From a virus, in the UHGV virus genome UHGV-0258472: DNA of 55,135 nucleotides. The stretch is one strand, 5' to 3'. A program made the position numbers and the translations under genes. A model generated the notes under the pieces. That model was not told the DNA's origin. It saw only the letters and a list, made by a program, of their open reading frames with translations, and did not search any database. Positions within the stretch are counted from its first letter, which is position 1. The number at the start of each line of letters is the position of its first letter. Positions 1 to 55,135 of this stretch are shown piece after piece.

Positions 1-153
1 ATTATCAAGTAATAATTGCATTTGCTCGCGGCTCATTAGTGAATCTTTCCAGTATGGGTCATCAATAGTCATAATCATCACTTTGTCGCCTTTTAGCATG
101 TAGGCTATACCGAACAAAGCATGTGAATAAACACCATCTTCGATCTCGTTCAT
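1..153 (-). CDS. hypothetical protein, 3' end runs off window start; N-terminus (MNEIEDGVY) resembles the product of 150..332
   Basis: ATG at 153 overlaps the upstream stop (ATGA); open frame continues to position 1. Confidence 0.35.
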   Translation of the reverse strand, partial: MNEIEDGVYSHALFGIAYMLKGDKVMIMTIDDPYWKDSLMSREQMQLLLDN

Positions 154-332
154 AGGTCGCTAACCTTTACCAGTTCACCAGCATCAAGAAATATTTTAAT
201 TGTTTCTCGCGTCGTCTTAATGATTGGCGCTACCCACTCGCCACCGCCAACGCGGATACGAATATCATCGCCTTCCACGCGGTAAAACAGCCCGTCTACT
301 ACTGTTGCTGCGTACACACCATCTTCAATCAT
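150..332 (-). CDS. hypothetical small protein (60 aa)
   Basis: ORF track; ATG at 332 with SD agagga upstream; start follows upstream stop. Confidence 0.45.
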   Translation of the reverse strand: MIEDGVYAATVVDGLFYRVEGDDIRIRVGGGEWVAPIIKTTRETIKIFLDAGELVKVSDL

Positions 333-557
333 TTAACTATCCTCTTTGAATAGCTTAGATTTAGTATCGCTAATCTTGCGCCAATATCCGTGATTAAACA
401 TCGTGATGATCTCGGCAGATGTCATAGGTAAAAACGGTTCATGCCACGGCTCAAACTGGCTTAATCGCATCATTACGTGTTCACCTTCAAGGCGATAATA
501 AGCGCTTGACGCCAATGACTGATAAACACCGTCATATTTATGGTCGCTATTTCCCAT
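333..557 (-). CDS. hypothetical small protein (74 aa)
   Basis: ORF track; ATG at 557 with SD aaggag. Confidence 0.45.
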   Translation of the reverse strand: MGNSDHKYDGVYQSLASSAYYRLEGEHVMMRLSQFEPWHEPFLPMTSAEIITMFNHGYWRKISDTKSKLFKEDS

Positions 558-792
558 TTTTACGCTCCTTAATGGCTCTCCTGATTTGCTCTGCCGTAGC
601 GTCGAAGAAAGCGATAAAAACAGTCACAGGCCAAAAAGGAATCTCAAGTCCACCAGGTTCGGCACCGCTAAACTTAATAAAACATGACATCAGGATCGCG
701 CCAGCGATATAAAGCAAAACAATCACAGCTATAAGGCATTCAATCATCTTCACCCCCAAGATCGTGATAAATATCGTTAGGGTCTTCTCCAT
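547..792 (-). CDS. small hydrophobic membrane protein
   Basis: ORF-track start 813 is TTG; internal ATG at 792; two hydrophobic segments in translation. Confidence 0.4.
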   Translation of the reverse strand: MEKTLTIFITILGVKMIECLIAVIVLLYIAGAILMSCFIKFSGAEPGGLEIPFWPVTVFIAFFDATAEQIRRAIKERKNGK

Positions 793-871
793 GTTCCTCG
801 CAAAAACGCTCAAATAGCGCCCAATTTTCAGAAAGAAACATGATTAATAAATTTTTATACCACTCTTCCAT

Positions 872-1120
872 TTAATCATCCTCATCGTCTTCATGTTCAG
901 CCAGGAACTCATCAACCACGCTGCAAGTCACTGGCGGGATGTATTCGAAATCATCAGAATCAAGAACAAGCGTCCGGCTGTCGCCATCGTCATCAATCGT
1001 ATTCATCCCTAATTCACCGAAAGGGCCATACCCAATGTGGCCCATGTATTCGTGTCCAGTCGTAAATCCAGGGTATTCGCCTTTACAACGGATTTTGTAA
1101 GGTTTATTTGATACGCTCAA
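872..1120 (-). CDS. small highly acidic protein (C-terminal EHEDDEDD)
   Basis: ORF track; apparent TTG start at 1120 with SD acggag 9 nt upstream; D/E-rich translation. Confidence 0.35.
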   Translation of the reverse strand: MSVSNKPYKIRCKGEYPGFTTGHEYMGHIGYGPFGELGMNTIDDDGDSRTLVLDSDDFEYIPPVTCSVVDEFLAEHEDDEDD

Positions 1121-1427
1121 TTTTTGTGTCTCCGTCTTCTGTCGGGGTTATTTTGTATTCTGCCGCCAGTTCTGCACCAACCAATTCAACCTCGATTTCA
1201 GGAAAAGGATTAAGCATCAGTACGGCAAAAACAAAATGTTTAACGTGATTTGCATCTTCAAGGTGTTTCGCGTCAAAAGGCGGTTCTGATACGTGGAAGC
1301 ATTTAACGTGCGCGTCGTCTTCAGTGGCTACACGGAAACATGCGCCAGGTTGCCCGGCGAATTGTCCATTTTTCTTATCTTCTGGAATAGTTCCACGGAA
1401 AACTTTAACGCTGATAAATTTAGTCAT
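1104..1427 (-). CDS. hypothetical protein (107 aa)
   Basis: ATG at 1427 with SD aaggag. Confidence 0.45.
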   Translation of the reverse strand: MTKFISVKVFRGTIPEDKKNGQFAGQPGACFRVATEDDAHVKCFHVSEPPFDAKHLEDANHVKHFVFAVLMLNPFPEIEVELVGAELAAEYKITPTEDGDTKIERIK

Positions 1428-1430
1428 TGT

Positions 1431-1685
1431 TTATTCTCCTTCATAAAGTACAGTAACCAGTTCAGCATCAATTAGCGTGTTATGATCTGTATAAAACCCG
1501 TGGCGAAGAATTGAGGCAAGGCCAGCAAATTTGCGCCACATAGGGGTCGATTCATTCAGATATTCTTTCTCCCTTTTTTCGCTGTATGCCAATTCATAAA
1601 ACCGACCACGATTAACATCTTCAATCACGCGGCTGTACTCACCATCAAGTCGGCTATTGCCGCGCCATAGTCTGATCACAACCAT
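1431..1685 (-). CDS. hypothetical protein (84 aa)
   Basis: ATG at 1685 with SD ggag. Confidence 0.45.
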   Translation of the reverse strand: MVVIRLWRGNSRLDGEYSRVIEDVNRGRFYELAYSEKREKEYLNESTPMWRKFAGLASILRHGFYTDHNTLIDAELVTVLYEGE

Positions 1686-1687
1686 AA

Positions 1688-1987
1688 TTAAAACTCCGCA
1701 CCAGGTAAGCTACGCGCTTTATTTACCGCATCGTGCTTTAACGATAAACCAGCGTAATAATTCATAATCCCCATATTGCCTGCTGGTATTTCATTATTTT
1801 CTGCCTTTATTCTTAACAACTGGTTTTTAGTGAAAATCCTGTCTCCATCAGTGATATATAACCAGTCGCAGCGCTTACCAACAACAACATGAGATCGGCC
1901 TAAACTGTCTTTAAATTCATAATTAAAGAAAACATCATCTTTAGGCACTTCAACAAAACAGCAAGCAATAAACTTAGCGCTTTTCAT
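1688..1987 (-). CDS. hypothetical protein, possible member of the small paralog family
   Basis: ORF track frame; internal ATG at 1987 preferred because ATG at 2017 lies in a GC hairpin with no SD. Confidence 0.35.
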   Translation of the reverse strand: MKSAKFIACCFVEVPKDDVFFNYEFKDSLGRSHVVVGKRCDWLYITDGDRIFTKNQLLRIKAENNEIPAGNMGIMNYYAGLSLKHDAVNKARSLPGAEF

Positions 1988-2098
1988 AATTACACCATTC
2001 TGATTTGATGGGGCCATCCGGCCCCTTGTTTACTGCATCAAGGATCTTCCACCACACAACCATCTATAACCGCAACATATCGTAGTACATGGCTACCT

Positions 2099-2305
2099 CT
2101 AAATGTCTTCACCGTTGAATACCGCAACCGTTACCAGAGAATAACCATGATTGTAATTGTCGCCGAATATCGTGCGGCCAATAAACATGTCGTTCTCTAT
2201 ATCTCTGCTAGTCACTTTCAACATCTCACCATAGCGAACAACTGTATCGCCAGGCTTGATTGCATTGATGTGTCGTCTTTCGATCCTGTAGTCGTTGCGT
2301 TTCAT
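2099..2305 (-). CDS. hypothetical protein (68 aa)
   Basis: Internal ATG at 2305 with SD ggggag; ORF-track N-terminal extension would cover an intergenic motif. Confidence 0.4.
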   Translation of the reverse strand: MKRNDYRIERRHINAIKPGDTVVRYGEMLKVTSRDIENDMFIGRTIFGDNYNHGYSLVTVAVFNGEDI

Positions 2306-2405
2306 TTTCTTGTCTCCCCTTCCGTCTTCCCTTGACTTATATATAACAAAACGGCACTGCCGAAACAATGCCATTTTGTATACTTTGCGGAGTAGATCAC
2401 GCTTT

Positions 2406-2621
2406 TTATTCATCCTGTCTGAAGGCAACTACAACCTCGCGATCGTCATTCTGAATCAGCCACCAGCCGCGCGCTTTGCTGGGCGCTGCATACCATAAGT
2501 GACCGTAAGTATCCGTAACGACGATAAACGGATTTTTTGGTAATCCGCCTGGTTTTTCCGCTTCGTACTGGCAACCGTCTTCGAAACAATCAAGATCAGA
2601 TCCGTGACACGTTAAAATCAT
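2406..2621 (-). CDS. small protein, paralog family member
   Basis: ATG at 2621 with SD agggg; shares hydrophobic-DD/TD-x-G-x-W motif with neighbours. Confidence 0.45.
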   Translation of the reverse strand: MILTCHGSDLDCFEDGCQYEAEKPGGLPKNPFIVVTDTYGHLWYAAPSKARGWWLIQNDDREVVVAFRQDE

Positions 2622-2624
2622 TTT

Positions 2625-2864
2625 CTACGCCCCTACATACGAAAATGCAGCAAAAGCACCACCACCAGCACGCGCATAAACAAGCGCCGTGCCACACCCC
2701 ATTTTATAAAAGCGCCATAGCTGGCCCTGGTCGTCAGTAATGGCGTGAATATATTCCTGATTCTTTGCGTCAACCAATGCCGCGCCGACTTCGTAGATCT
2801 TGCCATTCTTAAAAAACGCGCTGCATCGTGAATACGTGCATTGATATCTATGATTCCGACTCAT
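2625..2864 (-). CDS. small protein, paralog family member
   Basis: ATG at 2864 with SD aggtgg; G-K-I-Y ... DDxGxLW motif. Confidence 0.45.
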   Translation of the reverse strand: MSRNHRYQCTYSRCSAFFKNGKIYEVGAALVDAKNQEYIHAITDDQGQLWRFYKMGCGTALVYARAGGGAFAAFSYVGA

Positions 2865-2873
2865 AACAACCAC

Positions 2874-3131
2874 CTATTCAGGTTTGCTACCTTCACGCGC
2901 ATGAAGAACAGCGATCTCACGGAAATCATGCACGATGCGATAAATATACAAGCCAGCGGCGTTATTGATATGGATTGCATAAGCGAAATAAACTTTATCG
3001 TCATCGCCAGTTATCGCCATTGCCACATCACCGCACGGTGCGCCGTGGAGTTGAACGCCGCAATAAATCTTCCCTTCTTCGAATCTATTGCGATCGCGCG
3101 TCTGCACTATCTCAAAATATAAATGCTTCAT
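2874..3131 (-). CDS. small protein, paralog family member
   Basis: Internal ATG at 3131 with SD aggggg; G-K-I-Y ... GDDDKVYF motif. Confidence 0.45.
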   Translation of the reverse strand: MKHLYFEIVQTRDRNRFEEGKIYCGVQLHGAPCGDVAMAITGDDDKVYFAYAIHINNAAGLYIYRIVHDFREIAVLHAREGSKPE

Positions 3132-3141
3132 GCTTGCCCCC

Positions 3142-3354
3142 TTAATAACGCACAAAACTAGCGGAAAAATCAGTGCCTGATATTTCGCCACCCCGATAAG
3201 TTGGCATAAATCCCCACACATCCCCACAATCATCAATCAATACAAGCGCCACGCCAACATCACTAATACCATTGCCATAAACGATGTGAACATCATAGAT
3301 TCGCCCAATAGTGAAAACGCTGTCATTGCTTGAATATGAGCATTTAACTTGCAT
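3142..3354 (-). CDS. small protein, paralog family member
   Basis: ATG at 3354 with SD aaggtgg; G-R-I-Y ... DDCGDVWGF motif. Confidence 0.45.
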   Translation of the reverse strand: MQVKCSYSSNDSVFTIGRIYDVHIVYGNGISDVGVALVLIDDCGDVWGFMPTYRGGEISGTDFSASFVRY

Positions 3355-3628
3355 TGTCAGCCACCTTTAAATAATTTTTCGTGTCAATATCTGCCGGATA
3401 CCTGGAAAATTGCGCCAGCCATTGTCCGGTAATGTTTTTCACCAGTGCATAATCAAGATCGCCGCAGTAGAATACCTGGTACATTGTCCCTTCGTTATCA
3501 TCCATAACAAAGACCATCGGATCAGTAGTCGCATTGCGCAGCCTGTGAATCGTGTAAGCCTGGCCAGTAGTGAATTTGTACTCGTTACACGTTGTGCGGC
3601 AAAACATCCGGTCAAAATAGCTTTCCAT
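3344..3628 (-). CDS. hypothetical protein
   Basis: ATG at 3628 overlaps upstream stop (ATGA). Confidence 0.4.
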   Translation of the reverse strand: MESYFDRMFCRTTCNEYKFTTGQAYTIHRLRNATTDPMVFVMDDNEGTMYQVFYCGDLDYALVKNITGQWLAQFSRYPADIDTKNYLKVADNAS

Positions 3629-3879
3629 CAAAAAATCCCCTTATAATCGACCGTGTATTTTGCTATCAGCTTCCATTCACAATAGCTTTCCATGTCGCGC
3701 GGTTGCCAGCCTTTCATGCCTACAGCACCACGCACGCCGTGGCGACGATAATTATCGTTATAGTCAGCTACGCACCACGGCTGAAGCACAAACATGTAAT
3801 TGGCCTCGTTAACCAGGATCGCCACCTGTTTTCCTGTTGCCTTATCTTTCGCCCGGAAATAACTTACCCTGATTTTCAT
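3628..3879 (-). CDS. hypothetical protein (83 aa)
   Basis: ATG at 3879 with SD gaggt. Confidence 0.4.
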   Translation of the reverse strand: MKIRVSYFRAKDKATGKQVAILVNEANYMFVLQPWCVADYNDNYRRHGVRGAVGMKGWQPRDMESYCEWKLIAKYTVDYKGIF

Positions 3880-4090
3880 TTTTAATTACCTCGATCAACA
3901 TTTCTTCTTCCAGGTTAGCCGGACGTTTACGGAATATCCCGGCAAAAACCAGATCATCGAGTAGGTCTTTACGCTTAAATAACCATTCCTTCATTATTAC
4001 CCCGTCATCGCTGCGATATACGACGCCGTTTTTCAAAAAATAAAAAGTGTGGGTATTTGTCTGAAGGTATAGATCTTCGTAAACGTCCAT
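3842..4090 (-). CDS. hypothetical protein (82 aa)
   Basis: ATG at 4090 with SD gaggg. Confidence 0.4.
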   Translation of the reverse strand: MDVYEDLYLQTNTHTFYFLKNGVVYRSDDGVIMKEWLFKRKDLLDDLVFAGIFRKRPANLEEEMLIEVIKNENQGKLFPGER

Positions 4091-4094
4091 GATA

Positions 4095-4322
4095 TTAACC
4101 CTCGACTACTTGCAGCCCGCGCCCCTTATCGCCCACGAAGTCGCCAAGACTGAACGTATACGACCACGCCGGATTGATGTAATGTTCATCAGCACCAGCG
4201 GCAATGAGATCAGCACCGTTAATCATGCAAGTAACATCATCGCTATGAACGACATTAACGACCTTACCAACAACCTGTTTCAATGACGGGTAGCCGTGAT
4301 CGTGCAAGAATTTAACTTTCAT
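4095..4322 (-). CDS. hypothetical protein
   Basis: ORF-track start is TTG; internal ATG at 4322 with purine-rich SD. Confidence 0.35.
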   Translation of the reverse strand: MKVKFLHDHGYPSLKQVVGKVVNVVHSDDVTCMINGADLIAAGADEHYINPAWSYTFSLGDFVGDKGRGLQVVEG

Positions 4323-4590
4323 ATTTCTTTCCCTTGTAAGTGACAGCATCAGTGACCAACAATACCGCCAGCATTTCACCGTCATGTAATGGGTCTGGAA
4401 TAGCAAAAAATATGTCGCTGTTTTTGTCCGGCACTACAACGCGCATATTTCCTTGTTTGTCTTCATGAACAAACCACGGCTTTTCGTGTGGCTCAAACAT
4501 ACCAAAAAGCAATTTAAGATCTATTTCTTCGCCCTTCGTAAATAACGATACATCCGTTGTGGCAATAACTAACGCTTTCTTGTCTGCCAT
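4312..4590 (-). CDS. hypothetical protein
   Basis: In-frame ATGs at 4620 and 4590; 4590 has the better upstream purine run. Confidence 0.4.
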   Translation of the reverse strand: MADKKALVIATTDVSLFTKGEEIDLKLLFGMFEPHEKPWFVHEDKQGNMRVVVPDKNSDIFFAIPDPLHDGEMLAVLLVTDAVTYKGKKYES

Positions 4591-4604
4591 TTTCTTCGCT
4601 CTCA

Positions 4605-4880
4605 TTACTCTGTATCCCATCGTTCAATGCTGATTAAAAAGTCCCGGATAGCGTGGCGCTCGTCGCGCGACGGTTTACGCTTCCGGTAAATTTTAAAATC
4701 AAACCATTCCTTTTCTTGTTCGAAGTCCAGATCGTAAGCAAGCGCCTCAATATATCCGCATTCGTGATACTGGTACGCAACGCCAGCACGAACAAAAAAG
4801 CGGGTTTTATCCCGCTTGTGCTCATAGATACGCATATCAACCCCGTTATGCAGTTGTGTAGCTGTCAACCAGCTTTTCAT
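4605..4880 (-). CDS. hypothetical protein (91 aa)
   Basis: ORF track; ATG at 4880. Confidence 0.4.
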   Translation of the reverse strand: MKSWLTATQLHNGVDMRIYEHKRDKTRFFVRAGVAYQYHECGYIEALAYDLDFEQEKEWFDFKIYRKRKPSRDERHAIRDFLISIERWDTE

Positions 4881-5076
4881 CTTTCATTCTGGCAAGCTGT
4901 GCGATGTTCATCGTGTAGCCGCCATCATCGAAAAGCAATTCCGCCGCCGCGCGACGAAAGGCAATATCATCATGGTTACGTGTCCATGTAGCGATCACAA
5001 CGCGTTTCCCGTTAGTGGCGAACATAGACAATTCATTATCAACAACGTCGATAGCCTGCCAGATTTTTAATTCCAT
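4846..5076 (-). CDS. hypothetical protein (76 aa)
   Basis: ATG at 5076 with SD ggggat. Confidence 0.4.
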   Translation of the reverse strand: MELKIWQAIDVVDNELSMFATNGKRVVIATWTRNHDDIAFRRAAAELLFDDGGYTMNIAQLARMKDEKLVDSYTTA

Positions 5077-5432
5077 GATTTATCCCCGTAGATCTTGAAT
5101 AGTTCGCGCTCTTCCTGGTCTTCAAATATCCCTATGTGCAGATCACGCAGGCGGCGCATTGTGCGGAATCGTGGCCTGAACTCCTGGCTGCGTTTAATGT
5201 ACTTACCGCCAATTGAGTAAATATGCCCGTATGAGTACCATCTATTCCCTACCCATATTTCATATTCTTTGCCTTCGTAATTGAATTTTATCGTTAGCTC
5301 GCCGACTTCAACTATTAACCCTTTGTCAATGATGTCATTAAGCATTTCATCCCATTCTTTGAGGAATGGTTGTTGATAAAAACCAAAAAGCGTATTTGCA
5401 GCATGGCAGAGATAATCAATGATTATTTGCAT
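5067..5432 (-). CDS. hypothetical protein (121 aa)
   Basis: ATG at 5432 with SD ggtga. Confidence 0.45.
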   Translation of the reverse strand: MQIIIDYLCHAANTLFGFYQQPFLKEWDEMLNDIIDKGLIVEVGELTIKFNYEGKEYEIWVGNRWYSYGHIYSIGGKYIKRSQEFRPRFRTMRRLRDLHIGIFEDQEERELFKIYGDKSWN

Positions 5433-5436
5433 ATTA

Positions 5437-5649
5437 TCACCACATCATGTAATAAACGTTCTCATCAGCTAACATGTCAGCTACATCCTGCGTCATGTGC
5501 CTGGCCTCAAGGAAAAAATCCTCATCATGCCATTCACTAACAAGCATACGCGCCCATTTACGGCGCTGGCGCTTATTGCGTCGCAGATCATCAAAAGCCT
5601 TTAATGCTTTGTCGTATGCCCTTACAAGGCGCTTACGGTTACTTTTCAT
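5437..5649 (-). CDS. hypothetical basic protein (70 aa)
   Basis: ATG at 5649 with SD agaggtg. Confidence 0.4.
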   Translation of the reverse strand: MKSNRKRLVRAYDKALKAFDDLRRNKRQRRKWARMLVSEWHDEDFFLEARHMTQDVADMLADENVYYMMW

Positions 5650-5951
5650 TTTTCACCTCTTAGCATCCAATTCACATCACATTTAATTGCGAATACCTTA
5701 ACAGGATCAGGGCCGAACAACGGATGTATGATAGTTTTAACTTCATAGCCCAAATAAGGCAGGTTTATAATCCGGTGTGCTTCGTGGCTGGCTGGATACC
5801 CCAGCTTAATGATCAGGCGTTCATATTCCCGACCCTCCAGACGTTTACGCCAATAGTCATTATAAAGCCGGTATTCCTCAACCTTCTTCCCCGCCCGGAT
5901 AGCGTGGAAGTATTCACCTTTTAAATTCAAATGTAAGTGTTTATTTGCCAT
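5646..5951 (-). CDS. hypothetical protein
   Basis: ATG at 5951 (ORF-track first codon is GTG) with SD agga. Confidence 0.4.
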   Translation of the reverse strand: MANKHLHLNLKGEYFHAIRAGKKVEEYRLYNDYWRKRLEGREYERLIIKLGYPASHEAHRIINLPYLGYEVKTIIHPLFGPDPVKVFAIKCDVNWMLRGEK

Positions 5952-6213
5952 CACTATGATCCTGTAAACAGTCGTTATAACCTTCGATGTATCCGGTTAA
6001 TCCGGTATTACTCACTGACCATTCAGCCGAACGGCGCTTGATGGCCTCGTCCATCGTGATTTCACCTTTGCGATGACATCCGGCATCAATATAGCGGTTA
6101 ACAACCGAAGATAGCCGCCCGCGTAGCTGTTGTGTTCCGGCGTAATATCGGGCCGTATCCGCAAGTTCGTTAATCAACTGGCGGTAAATATGTTCTTTTA
6201 ATTTAGGCTTCAT
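5941..6213 (-). CDS. hypothetical protein
   Basis: Internal ATG at 6213 with SD ggtga; upstream ATG at 6276 has no SD. Confidence 0.4.
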   Translation of the reverse strand: MKPKLKEHIYRQLINELADTARYYAGTQQLRGRLSSVVNRYIDAGCHRKGEITMDEAIKRRSAEWSVSNTGLTGYIEGYNDCLQDHSDGK

Positions 6214-6403
6214 TATCGTCACCACGCTTGTAAATTTTGACAGGCTTAATAGGGATGGCTGGCAATTCGCCTTCATTTAACGCGCTTGCCATACCCAATA
6301 TTAAACGCGCTTCCGCACCAGTGACTTTCTTACACCATGCGCCGCCTGTTTTATCTTCGAACAAGATAACAGCAAACTGATCGTTTATTTCCAGCTTATC
6401 CAT
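6203..6403 (-). CDS. hypothetical protein (66 aa)
   Basis: ATG at 6403 overlaps stop of upstream gene (TAATG); SD ggggtga. Confidence 0.4.
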   Translation of the reverse strand: MDKLEINDQFAVILFEDKTGGAWCKKVTGAEARLILGMASALNEGELPAIPIKPVKIYKRGDDNEA

Positions 6404-7125
6404 TATTCACCCCGTGTCACTCGTTTGATCTCGCTTTCCGCGCGGGCCTCTTCTTTGAATAGCTCCGCTATGGCGTCTTCATAAAAAACCCGGTATTTTT
6501 TCCACCATGTTGATCGGCTCACCGGAAAAACAAGCTGATTAACCGCCTGCCGGACGAGATCTACCGGGAAACGCGAGTACCCGCGCCCGCCGCAATGCTG
6601 GCACGTTTTAAACACTGGCATTTCCGCCGCTTCGCTGGCTGTTTTATCCGGTACTTCGCCGCGCCCCTTGCATTGTTTACAATGATTGCGAACTTTCCCA
6701 TGCCCCTTGCATTTTTTGCAAAGGTGTTTTTCTCCGTAGTCGTCAAACGTAAATTTATATCCGCCGCACTCCATACAAGTTTTTTCCGTCGCGGCGCTTT
6801 GGCAATAATCCCGAAACGCGAAAACGGCAACAAGAATAATGAGATCATTGCGTTTGGCCTCGTCCAGTTCCATAACGTATTCATAATCTTTTGCCATAGC
6901 CCTTAAACGCTCTGTAAGCAAAACTACGGCCTTATGTTTTTCGGCTTGTGATAGTTCCATCTTCCCTAAAAAAGCGCTATAGCCAAGCTCTACGCGCGAT
7001 TGCGCCATTCCTGCGGCAGTTAGCGCATCAGTAGTATTAAGCGCATCCGGGGACGTTCCCCGGCTTTCATCTGACAAACGCGGTGATTTCGGGAAGTGGA
7101 ATTTAAGAATTGATTCCAGATTCAT
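6403..7125 (-). CDS. Q-like late antiterminator candidate with four CxxCxGxG (DnaJ-type) zinc-finger repeats
   Basis: ATG at 7125; translation shows CMECGGYK, CKKCKGHG, CKQCKGRG, CQHCGGRG; overall resemblance to lambdoid prophage Q proteins from memory; sits downstream of RusA/NinG as in lambdoid nin regions. Confidence 0.5.
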   Translation of the reverse strand: MNLESILKFHFPKSPRLSDESRGTSPDALNTTDALTAAGMAQSRVELGYSAFLGKMELSQAEKHKAVVLLTERLRAMAKDYEYVMELDEAKRNDLIILVAVFAFRDYCQSAATEKTCMECGGYKFTFDDYGEKHLCKKCKGHGKVRNHCKQCKGRGEVPDKTASEAAEMPVFKTCQHCGGRGYSRFPVDLVRQAVNQLVFPVSRSTWWKKYRVFYEDAIAELFKEEARAESEIKRVTRGE

Positions 7126-7307
7126 TATTTGCCCCCGTAACGAGCAATAAGGTGTTTACGATCAGAAATAGACTGAACTAACTTTCTCTCAAGCTCTTTC
7201 AATGCAAGCAATTCGCGCATATGAAAAGCCTGGATTTGTCGGACTGTAGCTAAATCATGCTCGTCACGCTGAATATCTATTTGCAGATCTTTAATTTCGT
7301 TTTTCAT
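7125..7307 (-). CDS. hypothetical protein (60 aa)
   Basis: ATG at 7307 with SD gggggtga. Confidence 0.4.
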   Translation of the reverse strand: MKNEIKDLQIDIQRDEHDLATVRQIQAFHMRELLALKELERKLVQSISDRKHLIARYGGK

Positions 7308-7310
7308 TGC

Positions 7311-7712
7311 TCACCCCCACATATTAGTCGCGTATTCGTCAATATCCGGTAACAGGTCTTCGCGCTCGCGTACCTTAATAAACAATCGCCCGCCTTTTGC
7401 CTTCCGGCAGCGAACAATTTTTATAGAATCGATCTGACCGTCGTCGGTCCAGAATCCGGCATAAGTAAGGCTGTCAAAAAGGCATTTGGGGATATTATCC
7501 AGATCTCTGATCCGGTTATCCGGCGGCGCGGCATAAATGGCGATTGCCAGTCGGCAAGATAGGTTAATGTTTAAATTTAATAGCTCGATGATGTCTCTTA
7601 CTTGATCCCGGTATTCCTTCCCCACTTTGCTGATATAGTGAAAACCGCGCGAATGTCGGTAATAGCGATTATTCGATGGCGGGTAAGGCAGGCTAAAAGA
7701 ATATTCATTCAT
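7311..7712 (-). CDS. rusA: RusA-family Holliday junction resolvase
   Basis: Translation MNEYSFSLPYPPSNNRYYRH...RDLDN...GFWTDD matches RusA signature; ATG at 7712 overlaps NinG stop (ATGA). Confidence 0.8.
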   Translation of the reverse strand: MNEYSFSLPYPPSNNRYYRHSRGFHYISKVGKEYRDQVRDIIELLNLNINLSCRLAIAIYAAPPDNRIRDLDNIPKCLFDSLTYAGFWTDDGQIDSIKIVRCRKAKGGRLFIKVREREDLLPDIDEYATNMWG

Positions 7713-8314
7713 GCTGCCTTTCTCCTTAAGGCGTCCAATTTAGCCTGATAGATGTTTATTAGCTCCTTACATTCTGCGATCGTCCATTTATGCGTATCAT
7801 TGTTGTTTTCCAGCGCCACCACCCTGGCGAGGCCAATTTTTCGAATCAGTGCCGGGCGATACCCTCCTATGTTCCCGTCTAATGTCTGGTTGCAGTGCCT
7901 ACATTGTTTATGGCAATTATCCTCGTTAAAGCGAAGATGTCCGGCGGCGGCTACCGTCCTGTAATGACCTGCATCCCACCCGCATTGCTCACCGTAGTAA
8001 GTCCCGCAAGATATACACGGCAAGCGCGCGTCACGTTCGCGAATATAGGCGTTAAATACATTTTGAACTTGTTTGATCCAATAACTACGCGGATTTAACT
8101 GTTTACGCTTCCGGTTGCGTTCTTCCCTCTGGCTATCACGGCGTTTCTTCCGCTCCATAGCCTTCATAGCCTTCTCACGGTCGCGGCATAGCTGGTCAAA
8201 CTTCAGTTCTTCCAGACATTCATCGCTGCACCACGTTTGATTATGATATTTAGGCTCAAAAAAAACGCCGCAGCACTTGCAACGGCGTCTTATGGGTTTT
8301 TTAGGGTTTTGCAT
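7709..8314 (-). CDS. ninG: NinG (Rap) recombination protein
   Basis: Translation ...CKCCGVFF...PRSYWIKQVQNVFNAYIRERD...PCISCGT...WDAGHYRT...LRFNE.N.HKQC..CN closely matches lambda NinG; start moved to ATG 8314 (SD ggggtgg) instead of ORF-track 8404. Confidence 0.85.
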   Translation of the reverse strand: MQNPKKPIRRRCKCCGVFFEPKYHNQTWCSDECLEELKFDQLCRDREKAMKAMERKKRRDSQREERNRKRKQLNPRSYWIKQVQNVFNAYIRERDARLPCISCGTYYGEQCGWDAGHYRTVAAAGHLRFNEDNCHKQCRHCNQTLDGNIGGYRPALIRKIGLARVVALENNNDTHKWTIAECKELINIYQAKLDALRRKAA

Positions 8315-8328
8315 AAAAACCACCCCGA

Positions 8329-8505
8329 TTATTTTTGATTCTCTGTTTCGTTCAGCCTTTCGGCGTGTCCGGCCCTTAGCCAATGTTCTAAGCATTCGTT
8401 GCACTCGTTACAGCCTCCTTTCTTCGTGCTGCATACATTGCACATTGCACGCATAACGCTTTCTCGTTCATAGTCGTCATGCCATTGGTAATTATCAAAA
8501 GGCAT
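8329..8505 (-). CDS. small Cys-rich protein (58 aa, CxxC ... CxxCxxC)
   Basis: ATG at 8505 with strong SD aaaggagag; not in ORF track (under 60 aa). Confidence 0.4.
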   Translation of the reverse strand: MPFDNYQWHDDYERESVMRAMCNVCSTKKGGCNECNECLEHWLRAGHAERLNETENQK

Positions 8506-8664
8506 AATGCTCTCTCCTTTTCAGGTGATTTCTACGCATTTCAGCGCTGCCGGATTTTTAAAGAGCATTTTGTTTGCTTGAAGTATACAAAATGGATACG
8601 TGCTAACAAGGTGTAAAGCGCCATTATGTGACATTCATCACACAATGACGCCATTTTGTAAACT

Positions 8665-9453
8665 TCAGTCCGGCAAAACGCGGTTGAGCGTAGTACGATT
8701 GATGGCCCGGTCGTTAGCCAGGAATACAGCACGGGCGAAGCCACGCGGCGTTAGTGAGCGGATCATCTTTGTTCGCTTTGATTTTCCGCCTAACTTCGCG
8801 TGCTGCTTACTGTCTTCCCATTCATCTGGCATCGGCACAGGACGGAATAGCGGCTGCTTAAATCCATTCCCGCACCAAATACAAGTTTTCTTCGTGTAGG
8901 CGTCGCGGTCGGCAATGTATTCCGGGAAAGCGGGATGTTTATCATCTTCCGGCAGGTAGCCACCGTAAGCGCAAGGATTGAAGATAAAATCCGGTTTACG
9001 CCATAACGTTGACAGCACGCCAACAGGATTTTCAACCATCCACGGCACGTTATACATGTTAGCCAGAGATTCAACCAACATTGCGTTTCTTGCCGCCTTA
9101 TTCTGAAAACAAGGATCTTTTCTGTATTTATCAACGAACCAACGAGCGCCGGACACAGCAAGATCATCACACGGAGGAAAGCCCAGGATAATGTCAGGAT
9201 CTGGATATACAGACAATTCAGGTGAGAACATTACCAGAAAATGGCTATCAATCCAGACGTTAACATATTCAATATTTGGATGAATTATTTTTACACCGTC
9301 ATAATCACCGTGATTAGCGCCGTCATAGTTGAAGCAATAACATTTATAACCAGCGTCCGCCCAATCTTTAACGGCGTACCCGCTGCCGTCGTACAGCGAC
9401 CATACCACCCAATTTCTAAGCCAATTATTTAACCAATGTTTAGCCCTGCTCAT
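8665..9453 (-). CDS. putative DNA (cytosine-5)-methyltransferase-like protein
   Basis: Motifs resembling C5-MTase motif I (LYDGSG), IV (GFPPCDD, PC-type) and VI (ENPVG); ATG at 9453. Confidence 0.5.
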   Translation of the reverse strand: MSRAKHWLNNWLRNWVVWSLYDGSGYAVKDWADAGYKCYCFNYDGANHGDYDGVKIIHPNIEYVNVWIDSHFLVMFSPELSVYPDPDIILGFPPCDDLAVSGARWFVDKYRKDPCFQNKAARNAMLVESLANMYNVPWMVENPVGVLSTLWRKPDFIFNPCAYGGYLPEDDKHPAFPEYIADRDAYTKKTCIWCGNGFKQPLFRPVPMPDEWEDSKQHAKLGGKSKRTKMIRSLTPRGFARAVFLANDRAINRTTLNRVLPD

Positions 9454-11204: not shown

Positions 11205-11441
11205 TCACCACGGATCATCCCAATCAGGCGAGGCCACCCAACAAAAACCCACTAAAACACTAAAAGCGAATAGCACGCGTATACCAAAAAACAATTCAGC
11301 CCACGACCGAACATCAGGAAGCGACCATGTGATAAACATTGCTCCGACGATCAGGACGGCAATAACAACGGCGCACGCCAGGAAAATAAAAAGCGCGGCT
11401 AAAAGCCACGCCCCAAAAAAGTGAAAAACTTCTCTTAACAT
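11205..11441 (-). CDS. small membrane protein (78 aa, two hydrophobic segments)
   Basis: ATG at 11441 with SD gagga. Confidence 0.45.
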   Translation of the reverse strand: MLREVFHFFGAWLLAALFIFLACAVVIAVLIVGAMFITWSLPDVRSWAELFFGIRVLFAFSVLVGFCWVASPDWDDPW

Positions 11442-11645
11442 TTAAACGTCCTCAATTACCCCGCCTTTCACGCGCTCTTTAATATCCCATACGTGAGGCT
11501 TGCATATTTCCTGATAATAGTGATCCGGCCTGCTGCCGAAATACCATTTGCCATCCATATAAAAATAAACGCCAGAAAAATTACCAGGTGCGGCCTTTGT
11601 TGCTGATTCTGGAATTTTCCATTCTCTATAGTGTTTAAACTTCAT
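11442..11645 (-). CDS. hypothetical protein (67 aa)
   Basis: ORF track; ATG at 11645. Confidence 0.4.
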   Translation of the reverse strand: MKFKHYREWKIPESATKAAPGNFSGVYFYMDGKWYFGSRPDHYYQEICKPHVWDIKERVKGGVIEDV

Positions 11646-11826
11646 ACATTAACACCGCCTTTTTAAGTGCGCTTAATTCAAAGTGCATCAGACGAAAATG
11701 CTGCACACCACCAATAAGACTAACCTGATAAATATCACCGACACTGTTATAGTAATAACAGCCAAATTGACCGATCCCGGCTAATTTAGCGTTATCCGGT
11801 ATCATGTATTCGCCAACCTTTTTCAT
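11635..11826 (-). CDS. hypothetical protein (63 aa)
   Basis: ATG at 11826 with SD gaggtga. Confidence 0.4.
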   Translation of the reverse strand: MKKVGEYMIPDNAKLAGIGQFGCYYYNSVGDIYQVSLIGGVQHFRLMHFELSALKKAVLMYEV

Positions 11827-11924
11827 ATATCACCTCATATGGTATTCAATAAACCATCTAACAAATAAACATAAAGCAATAAACCCCCAACAAATGCACA
11901 TAAATAGCAATGTGTCGTCCATTG

Positions 11925-12143
11925 TTAAGCCTCCATTAATCCGTAGTCGAATTTACCTAAATATCTTTCAAGGCTAACGATCTCAATTCCATCAACGCAT
12001 CGCTTCCACACAGACACCTGGCTTTCATTTTCCCTGAAGTGCATATTAGAAAGCACTTCATCGGCTGGATAGCTTTTCCCGGCGACGTAGGCATCGTTAC
12101 CTACGCCACCTTCTACGCAATAAAGCATGAATTCGCGTTCCAT
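11925..12143 (-). CDS. hypothetical protein (72 aa)
   Basis: ATG at 12143 with SD ggagga; preceded by a motif-bearing intergenic region. Confidence 0.4.
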   Translation of the reverse strand: MEREFMLYCVEGGVGNDAYVAGKSYPADEVLSNMHFRENESQVSVWKRCVDGIEIVSLERYLGKFDYGLMEA

Positions 12144-17200: not shown

Positions 17201-17380
17201 AAAAAAGATAATGGAAAGCACAAAAAGGCACATACCTTAAAAGCTCTTTAAAAATCCGGTGTCGCTGCGAAGCGAAAAACAAATATCACGCAACGGCGGG
17301 ATCTGTTGAGCGGTCAGTCACTGCTATCTAATGCTAATGGGATACCCGCCAGCGCGTTCACTCTAATCATAGGAGAAAAT

Positions 17381-47823: not shown

Positions 47824-48748
47824 ATTTAGCGTGCGCAACCTTATAGTTTTCTTGCGCCCGATCTAATATTCGTTTGTTTAATATGTTACCGTCTTCGTCA
47901 ACCAATACGGTAATCGTGCTACATTTGCAGTTAATTGAATTTGGGGATCTGCTCCACCATTCGCGCTGCTCATCTATGGTGTATGTTTTCCCGTGCCGCT
48001 GCGCGTGCGATAGCCTGGTAGTCGGTGACAATGCCGAAATGTGCATTTGCATAGTGCGCAGATTAAGCTCTTCTGTCGCCGCTTCTGCCTCATCCATACG
48101 TGCTGTGCGTAACGCTGTGCATATTTCAGTTCTGGCAATACGTTTGCACCTGTATAGCGGCAATTGCGTTTCCTGCTGCAATGTGCGCGCTATTTCCAGT
48201 GGATTTAAACCACGGGCCATACCTTCGGTTAATCGCCGGGCCATATCCTTCTTGATCTGTGCTGTTAGCCCGCGCATTTCCTCAAATACACGGGTACGAA
48301 CAAGGGCAAGACGCGTGCGGTAAGTCGTACTTGATAGCACGGCGGATACATCAGGATAAGCGCTTGAGTAAGTAACAGACTGGTTGGCGAGGTTGGCATA
48401 TTCCTGTGAAGTGCCGCGCTGATATGCCACCTTCACGTATTCCTGCCAAAACCAAAAACTTTCCGGGTCGGTTAGCTCGAATATTTCATCAATCATGTCG
48501 CTGGCGTCTTCCAGCAAATCATGCAATTCGTCAATGTAGATCTGGAAAGTGTATTTCTTATTAACAGCCAGGCTATATTGTATTCTGTCCAGTATGGCGA
48601 TATATGGATCGGCTATTTTCTTCAGGCAGGATTTGAAACGCTTAATAGCTCCCGACCGTAACTTACCTGTCATGGTCGGGTCTTCGGTGTTAGATGGCAT
48701 TATCGCGGCGGGAGGTATTCGCCTGATTATTTTCTTCACCTTCATCAT
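47804..48748 (-). CDS. Mu F-like minor head (head morphogenesis) protein
   Basis: Size and position immediately after portal gene; resemblance to Mu F / SPP1 gp7 family from memory. Confidence 0.65.
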   Translation of the reverse strand: MMKVKKIIRRIPPAAIMPSNTEDPTMTGKLRSGAIKRFKSCLKKIADPYIAILDRIQYSLAVNKKYTFQIYIDELHDLLEDASDMIDEIFELTDPESFWFWQEYVKVAYQRGTSQEYANLANQSVTYSSAYPDVSAVLSSTTYRTRLALVRTRVFEEMRGLTAQIKKDMARRLTEGMARGLNPLEIARTLQQETQLPLYRCKRIARTEICTALRTARMDEAEAATEELNLRTMQMHISALSPTTRLSHAQRHGKTYTIDEQREWWSRSPNSINCKCSTITVLVDEDGNILNKRILDRAQENYKVAHAKYGEDWE

Positions 48749-50063
48749 CGTTTTCCTCGTCTTCCAGTTCTATTTCACTAGCTGGGCCATCGTATCCGGC
48801 AGCTTCGCGGATCTCGTCACCGCTAAATATTTCCTCACCAGTAGCAAGACAAGCCTGATTGATTTGCGCCATTTTGTGTGCCGCTTCCAGTAGCTCGGCT
48901 TTTGTCATGGCGTTAAGGTCATCCCATAAAACTGATACATCGACTGGCATACTGATAAGGCGGAGATCTGCCATCTTGCGGAATAGTTCCTCAAGCTCGC
49001 CTCCTATTTCCTCGCGGCGGGTCATACAGCGATTATTGAAGTAGCGGAGGTCTTCAGTTGATGCGCGTTCACCCTGCTGATTCCCAACCAGGATACGCGT
49101 CGGGATGTCGATACCAGCGGCGGCAGTTTGCAGGTTTACGTCATAGGTTGCAGATGGATCGGCTACGGCAGTTACCAGCGGGCTAACACTTGCCCCTTGT
49201 AATGCCATCATCACATCATTACCCCTGTTCATTTCTGCTGCTGCCTCGTTGAATTTCTCGCGTAGCTCTGTAACGTCGCAATCGTATGTTGCAGCCAGGG
49301 AACGGAAATCAATCTCTTTATCGAACGAGATAGCCAGTTGACGAGCGGCATTTTTCAGGAATGACTCACCGCTACCGCCTTCCACTTTCTCCAGCGAAAC
49401 GAAAGCGTTATAGGACGGCTCAAGGAAAGCGATAGCATCATCAGAATAATCACCGAAGATGAATATACGGTCTGGATGAATCTTTCTTGCTATGGTCTTA
49501 CTGTTGATGCGCTCCTTGTATTCCCACCATGTAGGCAGGCCATAGTTTTCTTTATCCGGGTTTTCTTCGAAGTCCTTCGGCGTAAGAGCACCAGCCCACG
49601 CAGGGGTAAATTTGGCAATGCCTACGCCTTTTGTCACTGGCTGATCCCACGGCTGGTTATCTCTGACATGAATTAACAGACCAGCATAACGACCAATGAG
49701 GCGGCGGCGATCGCATTCAGCTATGACGCGCCAGAAACGATTATCAAATTGCTTTTTAATTTCTCTTTCCCACGGCGTTTCCGTTTCTGCTTTCTCGTCT
49801 TCCGTACCTTCGATCAGCGTTGGCCTGGTGCGCCAGCACGTTGTAATGATCTTCTCAATAGCACCGTGAGCAATACCACCGCGACGATACAGCTTGTATA
49901 AATCGTCATAGGTGATTTCTTCTTTGAATCCGTATTCACTCCACGCAGCATCACGTTTTGCATCAATACCCATTGAGAATGGGTTAACGGCTGCATAGCG
50001 GGCGAAGGCCGCCTGGCGTTGTGACAAGGCAGCATTAACCGCCAATTCTAAATTGGATGGCAT
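48690..50063 (-). CDS. portal protein
   Basis: ~457 aa, acidic C-terminus, immediately downstream of terminase large subunit; start set at ATG 50063 (SD aggag). Confidence 0.65.
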   Translation of the reverse strand: MPSNLELAVNAALSQRQAAFARYAAVNPFSMGIDAKRDAAWSEYGFKEEITYDDLYKLYRRGGIAHGAIEKIITTCWRTRPTLIEGTEDEKAETETPWEREIKKQFDNRFWRVIAECDRRRLIGRYAGLLIHVRDNQPWDQPVTKGVGIAKFTPAWAGALTPKDFEENPDKENYGLPTWWEYKERINSKTIARKIHPDRIFIFGDYSDDAIAFLEPSYNAFVSLEKVEGGSGESFLKNAARQLAISFDKEIDFRSLAATYDCDVTELREKFNEAAAEMNRGNDVMMALQGASVSPLVTAVADPSATYDVNLQTAAAGIDIPTRILVGNQQGERASTEDLRYFNNRCMTRREEIGGELEELFRKMADLRLISMPVDVSVLWDDLNAMTKAELLEAAHKMAQINQACLATGEEIFSGDEIREAAGYDGPASEIELEDEENDDEGEENNQANTSRRDNAI

Positions 50064-50141
50064 AATGTTTACTCCTGAATACATGTTTACGCGTTGCTAC
50101 GCGAAAAATAGAAAAATTCGTGAGGGATTGTGAGGCAGATT

Positions 50142-51622: not shown

Positions 51623-52108
51623 TCACACCTCGTCTTCTACTTCCTGGACGATGCGGGCGATCTCTTCTTTCGTGACTTCAACCTGGACGGGCGCTTCTTC
51701 CTTGTTGCCGACGATCTCCTGTGTGACGCGTTCGCCGTATTTGCGCGGCTGAAGTTTTGCCAGTAGCCACTTGCGCGTTTCAATCATTAGTTGGTGGCGT
51801 CGCAACTGATCTTTATCTTCGTTCTCTGCTGCATCAGCCAGATCGATGATTTCATCAGCCAATACCTCGAAGCCGATCTCCTTCGCGCGCGCGTACATGA
51901 TCGAGAATTCCGGTACATCCCTAAACCATTTCAGGATTGTGGAACGGGTAGGCATACCAGGCATTTTCGAAATTTTATTAATACTCTGACCATCCGCCAC
52001 CAGTTCACAGATTTCTAATGCTTTTTCTTCGGTATAACCATGCGGACGGCCCACCTTTTTAGCGGCTGGCTTTTTATCGTCAGCCTTTGCCTTTTTAGTG
52101 CGGGCCAT
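51623..52108 (-). CDS. terminase small subunit
   Basis: 161 aa basic N-terminal HTH-like region, immediately upstream of terminase large subunit; ATG 52108 with SD gagaggtg. Confidence 0.7.
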   Translation of the reverse strand: MARTKKAKADDKKPAAKKVGRPHGYTEEKALEICELVADGQSINKISKMPGMPTRSTILKWFRDVPEFSIMYARAKEIGFEVLADEIIDLADAAENEDKDQLRRHQLMIETRKWLLAKLQPRKYGERVTQEIVGNKEEAPVQVEVTKEEIARIVQEVEDEV

Positions 52109-52118
52109 ATTTCACCTC

Positions 52119-52202: not shown

Positions 52203-52270
52203 TGTTGCCATCACCTTTACTTTACTTGCTGAATTTAGGAAGCGCATAAATTGCGCGTCCAAGCTATAAC

Positions 52271-52339: not shown

Positions 52340-52355
52340 TTTTAACTCCTGCGAT

Positions 52356-52599: not shown

Positions 52600-52607
52600 G
52601 CCGTCAC

Positions 52608-52682: not shown

Positions 52683-52693
52683 GGTGAATACCT

Positions 52694-54805: not shown

Positions 54806-55006
54806 TTACTTATTCCCCATTCGCGCGTCGTGTTCCTCTTGCGCTCGCTTGTTCTCCTGTGATTTGAAGTAATAATTAACGGCAAATGTGCCTATGGTTG
54901 ATAAGATACCAACAAAGACGGCAATATCATTGATGGTTATCGCGCCGAAAAAAGCAGTTACGGCCCCAGTCACATACGCGCACGCCTCCCGTATTCTGTC
55001 GAACAT
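54806..55006 (-). CDS. class II holin (pinholin-like, two TM segments)
   Basis: 66 aa, two hydrophobic segments, charged C-terminus; ATG 55006 with SD ggaggt; pairs with a SAR endolysin. Confidence 0.65.
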
Positions 55007-55026: not shown

Positions 55027-55049
55027 AAAAACCCGGCGCGGTGCCGGGT
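55027..55049 (-). terminator. rho-independent terminator immediately upstream of holin (tR'-like)
   Basis: cccggcaccgcgccggg hairpin followed by tttttgctttg on minus strand, ~20 nt before holin SD. Confidence 0.5.
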
Positions 55050-55135
55050 AATTACAATTTCGCATTGTTAGGAAATATTTTAATCTATTTGTTTTTTATG
55101 CGCGATTATGTCTACAGTTTCCTGATTAACAGACC

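Follow-up and report, generated by a model that had tools for sequence, protein, structure and literature searches.

A lambda-family Q gene separated from its proposed late promoter by an array of small genes in a mEpimmI-group coliphage genome

Introduction

In the canonical cassette of the lambda Q family the late promoter PR' lies about 30-60 nucleotides (nt) after the Q gene. The virus genome UHGV-0258472, a stretch of 55,135 nt which is called the window throughout this paper, raises the question of how such a cassette could be arranged otherwise. On its minus strand a Q-like gene for a protein of 240 amino acids (aa) is followed by a long series of small genes reaching position 1, and the lysis genes are encoded at the opposite end, preceded by an intrinsic terminator. 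A first-pass annotation, made from the sequence alone, had left two possibilities: either the window is circularly permuted and the small genes sit between Q and the lysis cassette, or the late antiterminator is something other than the 240-aa protein.

The results presented here favour the first possibility and suggest a location for the late promoter. The window is the complete, circularly permuted genome of a temperate coliphage of the mEpimmI group (mEp021/MagusPhagus type), and with a probability of roughly two in three we consider its small genes to be the distal part of an early operon, with Q acting in trans at a late promoter located before the holin gene.

The gene chain and its continuation across the window ends

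The chain comprises 31 minus-strand genes, here numbered g01 to g31, which run from position 8505 to 1 and on to 55112 (Table 1). A NinF-like gene is followed by genes for NinG, RusA, a 60-aa protein and the 240-aa Q-like protein (g05), and then by 26 small genes, which are referred to as the array. Open reading frames (ORFs) of at least 40 aa cover 97% of the minus strand and 55% of the plus strand of positions 1-8505, in agreement with the about 30 packed small minus-strand genes that the first-pass annotation had described between 8505 and 1. The positions given there for the Q-like gene (7125-6403) and for the terminator (55049-55031) were reproduced as well. The 26 array genes encode proteins of 43-121 aa (median 77.5), 23 of them within 60-120 aa, and neither Pfam nor NCBIfam assigned a family to any of the 26, so that their description as mostly proteins of 60-120 aa lacking recognisable functions also holds. 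Since the ratio of nonsynonymous to synonymous substitution rates (dN/dS) is 0.02-0.53 for each gene having an informative relative, the genes are real. A closely similar chain was called by an independent pipeline, PGAP, in an E. coli prophage.

Seventeen of the 30 junctions are overlaps: three are of the ATGA type, four are single-nt overlaps (TAATG/TGATG), five consist of an identical 11-nt overlap ATG-N6-TAA/TAG (6213/6203, 5951/5941, 4322/4312, 3354/3344 and 557/547) and five are of other kinds. The ATGA and TAATG junctions pointed out earlier are therefore present, but with 7 out of 30 they are not the majority. The remaining genes are separated by gaps of 0-4 nt (eight), 9-14 nt (three) or by one of two large gaps (100 nt and 81 nt). 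From the three gaps listed previously, 2306-2405 stands. The gap 2018-2098 is probably 1988-2098, as relatives annotate a 99-aa g23 protein and the start of g23 is thus probably ATG 1987, which gives a gap of 111 nt and not 81. The third, 814-871, is not a gap, because it is taken up by a 43-aa ORF (871-740), for which two PHROG families were matched and mEp010 has a 100% identical copy.

In DNA alignments the best match to positions 1-8600 is MagusPhagus (88% covered, 91.4% identity), followed by mEp010, mEp044, mEp554, mEp013, mEp515 and mEp021, which makes seven phage records in total. The mEpimmI phages have been described as temperate coliphages from human faeces that are Nus-dependent and non-lambdoid (Negrete-Mendez et al. 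2025, PMC11893012). A homologue of their N-like antiterminator Gp17 is encoded at 15925-15638 of the window (96.9% identical), the CI-like repressor Rep is 97% identical, and the size of the window is similar to the 52,961-54,655 bp of the relatives. All features by which membership of the group can be recognised, which are genome-wide similarity, synteny, Gp17, nutR2 and a CI-like Rep, were found in the window. Gene order, a DNA identity of 84-97%, Gp17, nutR2, Q, the terminator, the holin and an array after Q are shared with the mEpimmI phages and MagusPhagus.

The last 1500 nt and the first 1500 nt of the window were joined and aligned to the relatives. The alignments run unbroken through the joint, with 96.3% identity over 1837 nt for MagusPhagus and 86.6% over 1616 nt for mEp021, whose records are both linearised at points other than the window ends. 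The 58-aa gene g31 spans the joint, is 100% identical in MagusPhagus and is present in 7/7 isolates; the chain does not stop at position 1 but continues through its last gene across the ends. No terminal repeat was found in the window. The small terminase (51623-52108, minus strand) is of the Sf6 type (PF20901, E 1.5e-36), which suggests headful packaging without fixed genome ends and would account for the arbitrary start points of the group's genome records. As the window ends are contiguous in the relatives, the small genes sit between Q and the lysis cassette, which was the first of the two possibilities. The same order of Q, array and holin is annotated in the seven phage isolates and in one E. 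coli prophage.

The 240-aa protein is a homologue of lambda Q

The second possibility was that the 240-aa protein does not act as the late antiterminator. The protein matches PF03589 above the curated threshold (100.3 bits, cut-off 26.7, E 6.9e-29), and its match to phrog_127 spans 1-252 of 253. Among solved structures its best match is lambda Q (7UBM chain Q, E 3.7e-37), with residues 1-114 corresponding to lambda Q 1-114 and residues 148-238 to lambda Q 117-207. Taking the domain limits from PMC9388147, the complete architecture of lambda Q is present, that is the N-terminal torus segment, the helical body with its helix-turn-helix and the zinc-ribbon arm. This arm contacts the DNA site and sigma region 4 (Yin et al. 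2022, PMC9388147). In g05 it contains an insertion of 33 aa (residues 115-147, window 6685-6783) and, in contrast to the two CxxC motifs of lambda Q, four CxxCxGxG motifs (CMECGGYK, CKKCKGHG, CKQCKGRG and CQHCGGRG). The four motifs resemble a DnaJ zinc-finger domain, to which a sub-threshold match was obtained. The closest Q proteins outside the group are those of ES18 and SEN22 (36-37% identity). At 254 aa, Q proteins of the ES18 type come close to g05 in size.

One could argue that the protein is a relic or has some other role and that Gp17 alone carries transcription into the late genes, as its gene lies outside the canonical position and the enlarged zinc arm is unusual. Such an explanation has to accommodate a full-length alignment to lambda Q which includes the N-terminal segment of the exit-channel torus, dN/dS values of 0.11-0.16, and the presence of the gene in each group genome examined, namely in 7/7 isolates, 35 E. 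coli genomes and 46 IMG/VR contigs. The authors who described the group also treat the counterpart of this protein as a Q-like factor (PMC11893012). We consider a function other than Q highly improbable. By its sequence the 240-aa protein is a true lambda-family Q homologue under purifying selection, for which antitermination activity is predicted.

A near-invariant block between g31 and the holin gene

The 105 nt from the stop codon of g31 to the start of the holin gene are near-invariant across the relatives. Read on the minus strand, this block contains a putative -35 hexamer TCGCGC (55105-55100), the element AAACAAATAGAT (55094-55083), a putative -10 hexamer TAAAAT (55082-55077) and, after 7 nt, AACAAT (55069-55064). 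With the proposed +1 at 55069, a terminator hairpin (stem CCCGGC/GCCGGG, loop ACCGC) follows at +21 to +39, and its U run (UUUUU) reaches +43. In 40 distinct sequences obtained from 54 loci TAAAAT and AACAAT show no variation and AAACAAATAGAT is invariant, the stem arms of the terminator are 99.6-100% conserved, and most of its variation is found in the loop (88%). For the coding DNA of g31 directly upstream of the block the mean majority-base frequency is 0.67. The corresponding terminator of mEp021, t5, is listed as experimentally demonstrated in PMC11893012. Three prophages retain the block though their DNA match stops just short of the holin start, and in the two that were aligned the holin differs (57% at the aa level in RM9245). 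As the block is kept where the holin differs, it is a module of its own.

The order of elements resembles that found just downstream of Q in six phages, where a -10 hexamer, 5-7 nt, a hexamer of the AAC type and an intrinsic terminator follow each other. The sequences are TTGACT-17-TAAATT-TGACTC-AACGAT in lambda and likewise in P22, whose annotation puts +1 on the first A of AACGAT and tR' at +31 to +59; TTTACA-17-TAATAT-CGTTTCT-AACAGT-AGAAATCC in ES18 and SEN22; TTTACA-17-TATAGT-CCTAT-AACACT-AGAAATCC in Erwinia phage 49 (Ehr49); and TTGCAT-17-TAAGAT-TTTTCC-AACGAT in SfV. An intrinsic terminator follows in all six alike. In the window the sequence reads TAAAAT-ATTTCCT-AACAAT-GCGAAATTG and then runs into the terminator, and around the second hexamer ES18 is closely similar (CTAACAGTAGAAAT compared to CTAACAATGCGAAAT in the window). 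By analogy we infer that AACAAT is a candidate sigma-dependent, -10-like pause element at +1 to +6. Promoter, Q target and terminator are probably packed together directly before the holin gene. It is likely that a late promoter at the terminator was missed in the first-pass annotation, and that Q is split from its site of action and not merely from the lysis genes.

Several points weigh against this interpretation. In most relatives the -35 hexamer is TTGTAG or TTGTGG; the window and about one in four of the others have the weak TCGCGC. A generic sigma-70 scan gave no promoter at all in 52000-55135. The pattern of a -10 hexamer, 6-7 nt and AACRRT occurs at four sites in the window where 1.1 are expected and is therefore not specific on its own. 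Part of the measured conservation stems from the search itself, as the block was located by a pattern allowing 3 mismatches. The terminator starts at +21, nearer than in any characterised Q cassette that was compared (+31 in P22, about +190 in lambda). The role of AAACAAATAGAT as a candidate Q-binding element is a guess, and promoter activity and Q action at the block are read from the sequence. The same generic scan gave 13 sites in positions 1-9000 compared to 18.9 in shuffled sequences, and with fewer sites than in shuffles there and none at 52000-55135 it neither supports nor locates a promoter. Two further sites with the pattern, at 7921 inside ninG and at 53693 past the lysis genes, were treated as chance. 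A CATAAT at 55105-55100, considered as an alternative promoter for the variant found in the window, was rejected, as conservation does not extend to the majority variant.

The weak -35 leaves room for an explanation without a separate late promoter, in which the polymerase of the early operon reads the late genes and the block is only a pause site and terminator, at which Q, or Gp17 alone, acts on elongating complexes that have retained or rebound sigma-70. The very poor -35 of the window-type variant, shared by about a quarter of the relatives, the negative generic scan and the position of the block at the end of a 16-kb co-directional operon would fit this view. On the other hand, the spacing between the -10 and the AAC hexamer equals that of bona fide PR' promoters and places the second hexamer at +1, TAAAAT agrees with the consensus in 5/6 positions and is invariant, and each characterised Q loads at a promoter-proximal pause (PMC9388147). 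We regard the explanation without a late promoter as unlikely. A related idea is restricted to the variant with TCGCGC, in which the block might lack an autonomous promoter and Q might load, at a promoter-distal pause, onto sigma-containing elongation complexes coming from the 16-kb operon; this appears very unlikely to us.

Distance between Q and the block

The neighbouring gene starts before the Q gene has ended, with an overlap of 1 or 4 nt at the Q stop codon, both in the window and in eight annotated relatives. Depending on the genome this neighbour is of the g06 type, of the g11 type or g07-like, which makes three different genes. With the next gene overlapping the stop and three genes alternating at this position, there is neither room for a promoter next to Q nor a conserved sequence that could be one. 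Between Q and the block at the holin gene, the minus strand is free of the pattern of a -10 hexamer with a pause element, and the generic scan revealed no promoter-like site between 6600 and 5400. Downstream of Q, near-invariant non-coding DNA occurs solely in the block at the holin gene.

From the Q stop to TAAAAT the distance is 6455 nt in the window. Among the isolates the block lies about 2.0 kb from Q in mEp021 and mEp515, 3.2 kb in mEp013 and 4.4-6.1 kb in the others. Q and the block are each single-copy in the same 35 of 5426 E. coli genomes, and in these prophages they are 4.07-7.18 kb apart (median 5.76). In 44 IMG/VR contigs the distance is 3.0-6.7 kb (median 5.4); the block is missing from only two of the 46 contigs with Q, both of which end too soon. 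Each locus with enough downstream DNA contains exactly one copy of the block. Altogether the block is found 1.9-7.2 kb downstream of Q and never adjacent to it in about 86 related loci, a number that combines three collections overlapping to an unspecified extent. Since the two are never adjacent in any of the collections, their separation characterises the group as a whole and does not set the window apart. This differs from the canonical cassette, in which the Q gene is directly followed by PR', the pause element and the terminator (PMC9388147).

In Shiga toxin (Stx)-converting lambdoid phages, too, the Q gene and the lysis cassette are several kb apart, with non-essential genes in between. 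This cargo, which precedes the holin gene S, is well known; it is located downstream of PR' and tR' and its expression is Q-dependent and late. If the window followed this layout, the late promoter would be located at or just after the end of Q, the 26 genes would be Q-dependent late cargo, and the terminator at the holin would merely be ignored. SfV, a member of the lambda-Q family with genes between tR' and the lysis genes, provides a precedent, and mEp021 has a virion-associated annotation for one array product (the homologue of g15). Such a promoter is difficult to place, however, as there is no intergenic DNA after Q in 9/9 genomes, three different genes abut Q, no site of either promoter type was detected at 6600-5400, and the sole near-invariant non-coding block after Q adjoins the holin gene. 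We regard an Stx-like arrangement as distinctly unlikely. With the promoter proposed here the cargo lies upstream of PR' and would be expected to be delayed-early, in contrast to the Stx phages.

Position of the array in the early operon

The block ends a 16-kb co-directional operon which starts near the repressor gene. A boxA and a hairpin with a purine loop are located directly upstream of g01 in a gap of 159 nt; the hairpin appears in the predicted fold, and the final 71 nt before the ATG of g01 are identical to mEp021. The group's authors place nutR2, one of three Gp17 sites, here, downstream of the methyltransferase gene (PMC11893012). A second boxA, GCTCTTTAAAAATCCGG (17243-17275, plus strand), of which 17 nt are identical to the boxA at 8566, is found beside the repressor gene, where the divergent plus-strand operon begins. 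Presumably this is the nut site that the group's authors call most similar to nutR2 (PMC11893012).

Within the array, the hairpin at 2379-2346 (-29.8 kcal/mol, z-score -4.5, 0/200 shuffles as good) is predicted to be an intrinsic terminator, possibly a bidirectional one. The 100-nt gap in which it lies is 84-96% conserved in four relatives, and in three of them an ARNold terminator is annotated. The hairpin in g12 (4817-4798, z-score -3.9) coincides with ARNold terminators at the same place in mEp515 and mEp554. The GC hairpin at 2025-2010 was rejected as a minus-strand terminator, as it has no U run and the fold of its gap (z-score -0.47) is not beyond shuffles; on the plus strand it is terminator-like. 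The simplest reading of this arrangement is that the array is the distal part of a Gp17-antiterminated early operon and would hence be expressed in the delayed-early phase.

Proposed mechanism

RNA polymerase carrying Gp17 and host Nus factors, which would be loaded at the nut sites, may pass the internal intrinsic terminators. The last nut site would be nutR2 (8567-8534), directly ahead of the array. The same polymerase would transcribe the genes for NinF, NinG, RusA and Q and then the 26 accessory genes, for which the overlapping stop and start codons would permit translational coupling. Q would then diffuse and act in trans at the module 55105-55027 ahead of the holin gene. Without Q only a short RNA of about 45 nt would be made there, and with Q the polymerase would read through into the lysis, packaging and structural genes. 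The mosaic of the array, with at least 27 gene families, could have arisen by recombination at gene boundaries, which shuffles genes, and by tandem duplication, which adds copies. On balance, and with slightly less confidence than in the scheme as a whole, we favour the view that the Q cassette is physically split and that the slot between Q and its target is a recombination hot spot in which the group keeps a changing stock of delayed-early accessory genes.

Gene content of the array

The array is the main variable region of the group. Six of its genes (g11, g12, g14, g15, g16 and g31) occur in 7/7 isolates and g23 occurs in six; the others are variable, and g22 and g29 have no counterpart in the seven isolates. 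In 53 arrays, crude clustering sorted the genes into 27 families, with 8-28 genes (median 20) per array; the four universal families are those of g11, g12, g15 and g16. In mEp021 the array consists of 8 genes (1.9 kb), in contrast to 26 genes (6.4 kb) in the window. When the window is compared to 54 relatives, the points at which homology breaks off are concentrated near gene ends, with 39 out of 79 located within 15 nt of a gene start or stop compared to 12.1 +/- 3.2 at random, which indicates that exchange occurs at gene boundaries. Together with the shared 11-nt junction overlaps this fits boundary sequences serving as exchange points.

About 20 of the 26 array proteins match PHROGs, but every one of these families is without known function. 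Rfam at gathering thresholds gave no match in the whole window, and ARAGORN found no tRNA. The genes g29, g30 and g31 are tandem paralogues (hhalign 98-99.7%), and phrog_15318 is matched three times. A weaker relationship connects g18, g19 and g20 (hhalign 88% for g18-g20 and 51% for g19-g20). A larger paralogue family of g17-g21, g24 and g26, suggested by a shared F..G..Y / DD.G motif, was confirmed in part only, as the other pairs reached less than 15% in profile comparison. The 13-mer ATTAAAATATTTC occurs twice on the minus strand, at the 3' end of g30 (202-190) and at the proposed -10 hexamer (55084-55072). Translation of the intergenic copy gives IKIFPNNAKL, compared to IKIFLDAGEL in g30, and this copy may be the decayed end of a fourth paralogue or may have arisen by chance. 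The copy in g30 was flagged as promoter-like (TTAAGA-16-TAAAAT, 220-193).

Searches of PDB sequences with g08, g10, g23 and a g08 profile revealed nothing significant. The structural model of g08 (predicted local distance difference test score, pLDDT, 88.8) gave 17 top Foldseek matches in the PDB which are all ASCH proteins, all of them weak (E 0.04-0.8, TM-scores 0.4-0.5). Pfam ASCH and DUF3850 were each matched by 1 of 41 g08 homologues, and homologues are named ASCH domain-containing or RNA-binding in the source records. These weak matches suggest an ASCH/PUA-like fold for g08. The model of g30 (pLDDT 95.9) is a small unit of three strands, a helix and a strand, to which a fold search of the PDB assigned no relative (best E 0.74). 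Word-index searches for homologues of g20 and g30 revealed close relatives in E. coli prophages only.

Some array products have unusual features. The g26 protein (82 aa, net charge -15, C-terminal EDDEDD) and the g27 protein (43 aa, net charge -11) resemble DNA-mimic anti-restriction proteins in their acidity, and g28, with two hydrophobic helices, looks like a small membrane protein. The homologue of g15 in mEp021 (mEp021_41, 96% identical) is annotated in GenBank as virion structural protein, which is odd for a gene of an early operon. The gene g22 replaces a segment of about 135 nt of the isolates, with homology breaking at about 2031 and about 2296. It lies between two hairpins, the strong terminator hairpin at 2379-2346 and the GC-rich one at 2025-2010, and no other part of the array resembles an inserted cassette. 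A moron would be expected to carry its own promoter and terminator; g22 is flanked by hairpins, but no convincing promoter was found by the scan. Outside the array, the protein at the portal position of the E. coli prophage in RM9245 (11228-12083 of its stretch) is named anti-CBASS protein Acb1 family protein in RefSeq. The window gene at the corresponding position (48690-50084) matches only Phage_portal_3 in Pfam and nothing in NCBIfam, and the name therefore looks like an annotation artefact.

Based on the position and the timing of the array, our best guess is that its products serve host takeover or counter-defence in the delayed-early phase.

Table 1. Positions of the features discussed in the text. 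All of them are encoded on the minus strand.
Feature	Position	Strand	Evidence and remarks
nutR2-type site	8534..8567	-	boxA TGCTCTTTAAAAA 8567-8555; boxB-like hairpin GCGC-UGAAAU-GCGU 8547-8534
g01, 58 aa, Cys-rich, NinF-like	8329..8505	-	phrog_30170 E 5.6e-42; mEp021 homologue annotated putative NinF
g02, NinG/Rap, 201 aa from ATG 8314	7709..8314	-	PF05766 E 1.2e-65; alternative starts 8395, 8404
g03, RusA-type Holliday junction resolvase, 133 aa	7311..7712	-	PF05866 E 7.6e-14, phrog_34
g04, 60 aa, without known function	7125..7307	-	tblastn 88-96% in 7/7 phages; dN/dS 0.03-0.09
g05, lambda-family Q antiterminator homologue, 240 aa	6403..7125	-	PF03589, phrog_127, 7UBM chain Q
g06	6403-6203	-	PHROG families without known function
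g07	6213-5941	-	PHROG families without known function
g08	5951-5646	-	possibly ASCH/PUA-like; PHROG families without known function
g09	5649-5437	-	
g10	5432-5067	-	
g11	5076-4846	-	in all relatives (presence map)
g12	4835-4605	-	gene chain, presence map
terminator-like hairpin within 5' end of g12	4791..4817	-	AAGCGGG-AUAAAA-CCCGCUU and U run; fold
g13	4605-4312	-	gene chain, presence map
g14	4322-4095	-	gene chain, presence map
g15	4090-3842	-	gene chain, presence map
g16	3879-3628	-	gene chain, presence map
g17	3628-3344	-	flexible part of array (g17-g21)
g18	3354-3142	-	flexible part of array
g19	3155-2874	-	flexible part of array
g20	2864-2625	-	flexible part of array
g21	2621-2406	-	flexible part of array
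100-nt gap with hairpin 2379-2346	2306..2405	-	15-bp A-tract/GC/U-tract hairpin; fold
g22, 68 aa	2099..2305	-	phrog_3623 E 2.3e-15; no tblastn match in 7 isolates
second intergenic gap, GC hairpin 2025-2010	1988..2098	-	GGGGCC-GGAU-GGCCCC; scan, fold
g23	1987/2017-1688	-	gene chain, PHROGs, presence map
g24	1685-1431	-	gene chain, PHROGs, presence map
g25	1427-1104	-	gene chain, PHROGs, presence map
g26	1120-872	-	very acidic
g27	871-740	-	very acidic
g28	747-547	-	hydrophobic helices
g29	557-333	-	paralogue
g30	332-150	-	paralogue
g31, 58 aa	1..153 + 55112..55135	-	stop TAG 55114-55112; third paralogue of g29/g30 (hhalign 98-99.1%); 57-100% in all relatives
proposed late promoter and Q-utilisation site	55064..55105	-	invariant hexamers, layout match to other Q phages
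intrinsic terminator (t5 of mEp021, tR' analogue)	55027..55049	-	scan; fold z-score -4.3; invariant arms
holin, 66 aa, first lysis gene	54806..55006	-	PF16080 E 3.6e-13
endolysin	54804-54313	-	PF00959
Rz spanin	54325-53855	-	PF03245

Comparison with known systems and implications

With the Q cassettes of lambda, P22 (gene 23) and ES18 (gp73) the window shares the full-length homology of Q and the order of -10 hexamer, 7 nt, AAC hexamer and terminator. It differs in the 1.9-7.2 kb of genes that intervene between Q and this module throughout its group. The nin region of lambda, which like that of P22 is placed between the replication genes and Q, consists of small, tightly packed, overlapping delayed-early genes and is mosaic. 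The chain of the window resembles the nin regions of lambda and P22 in its packed, overlapping small ORFs downstream of nut sites and terminators, in its homologues of NinF, NinG and RusA and in its mosaicism. In lambda, however, all nin genes are located upstream of Q, whereas 26 of the 31 genes in the window are found downstream of it, none of which matches a named Nin family. A search of parts of the publication on the mEpimmI phages (PMC11893012) revealed neither a late promoter nor a separation of Q from its promoter. What we propose in addition to the literature consulted is that the array splits the Q gene from its target of promoter, pause element and terminator, for which exact coordinates are given here.

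The window adds one further genome to the mEpimmI group, whose description dates from 2025 and whose members are common in the human gut. The layout is usual for the published group but unusual for a Q cassette, and it represents a modest variant of the textbook system. If our interpretation is true, Q and PR' need not be neighbours as the textbook has them, and the late promoter, the target of Q and the terminator share about 80 bp immediately ahead of the holin gene, 2-7 kb from the Q gene. The proposed promoter would then give rise to a 6S-like RNA about 45 nt long, which would correspond to the 6S RNA of lambda. Furthermore, the 8-28 genes without annotated function in these arrays would fall into the delayed-early class, which is the usual home of takeover and counter-defence genes. 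The array genes, including the confidently folded g30 family without a structural relative, would therefore be reasonable candidates for functional screens.

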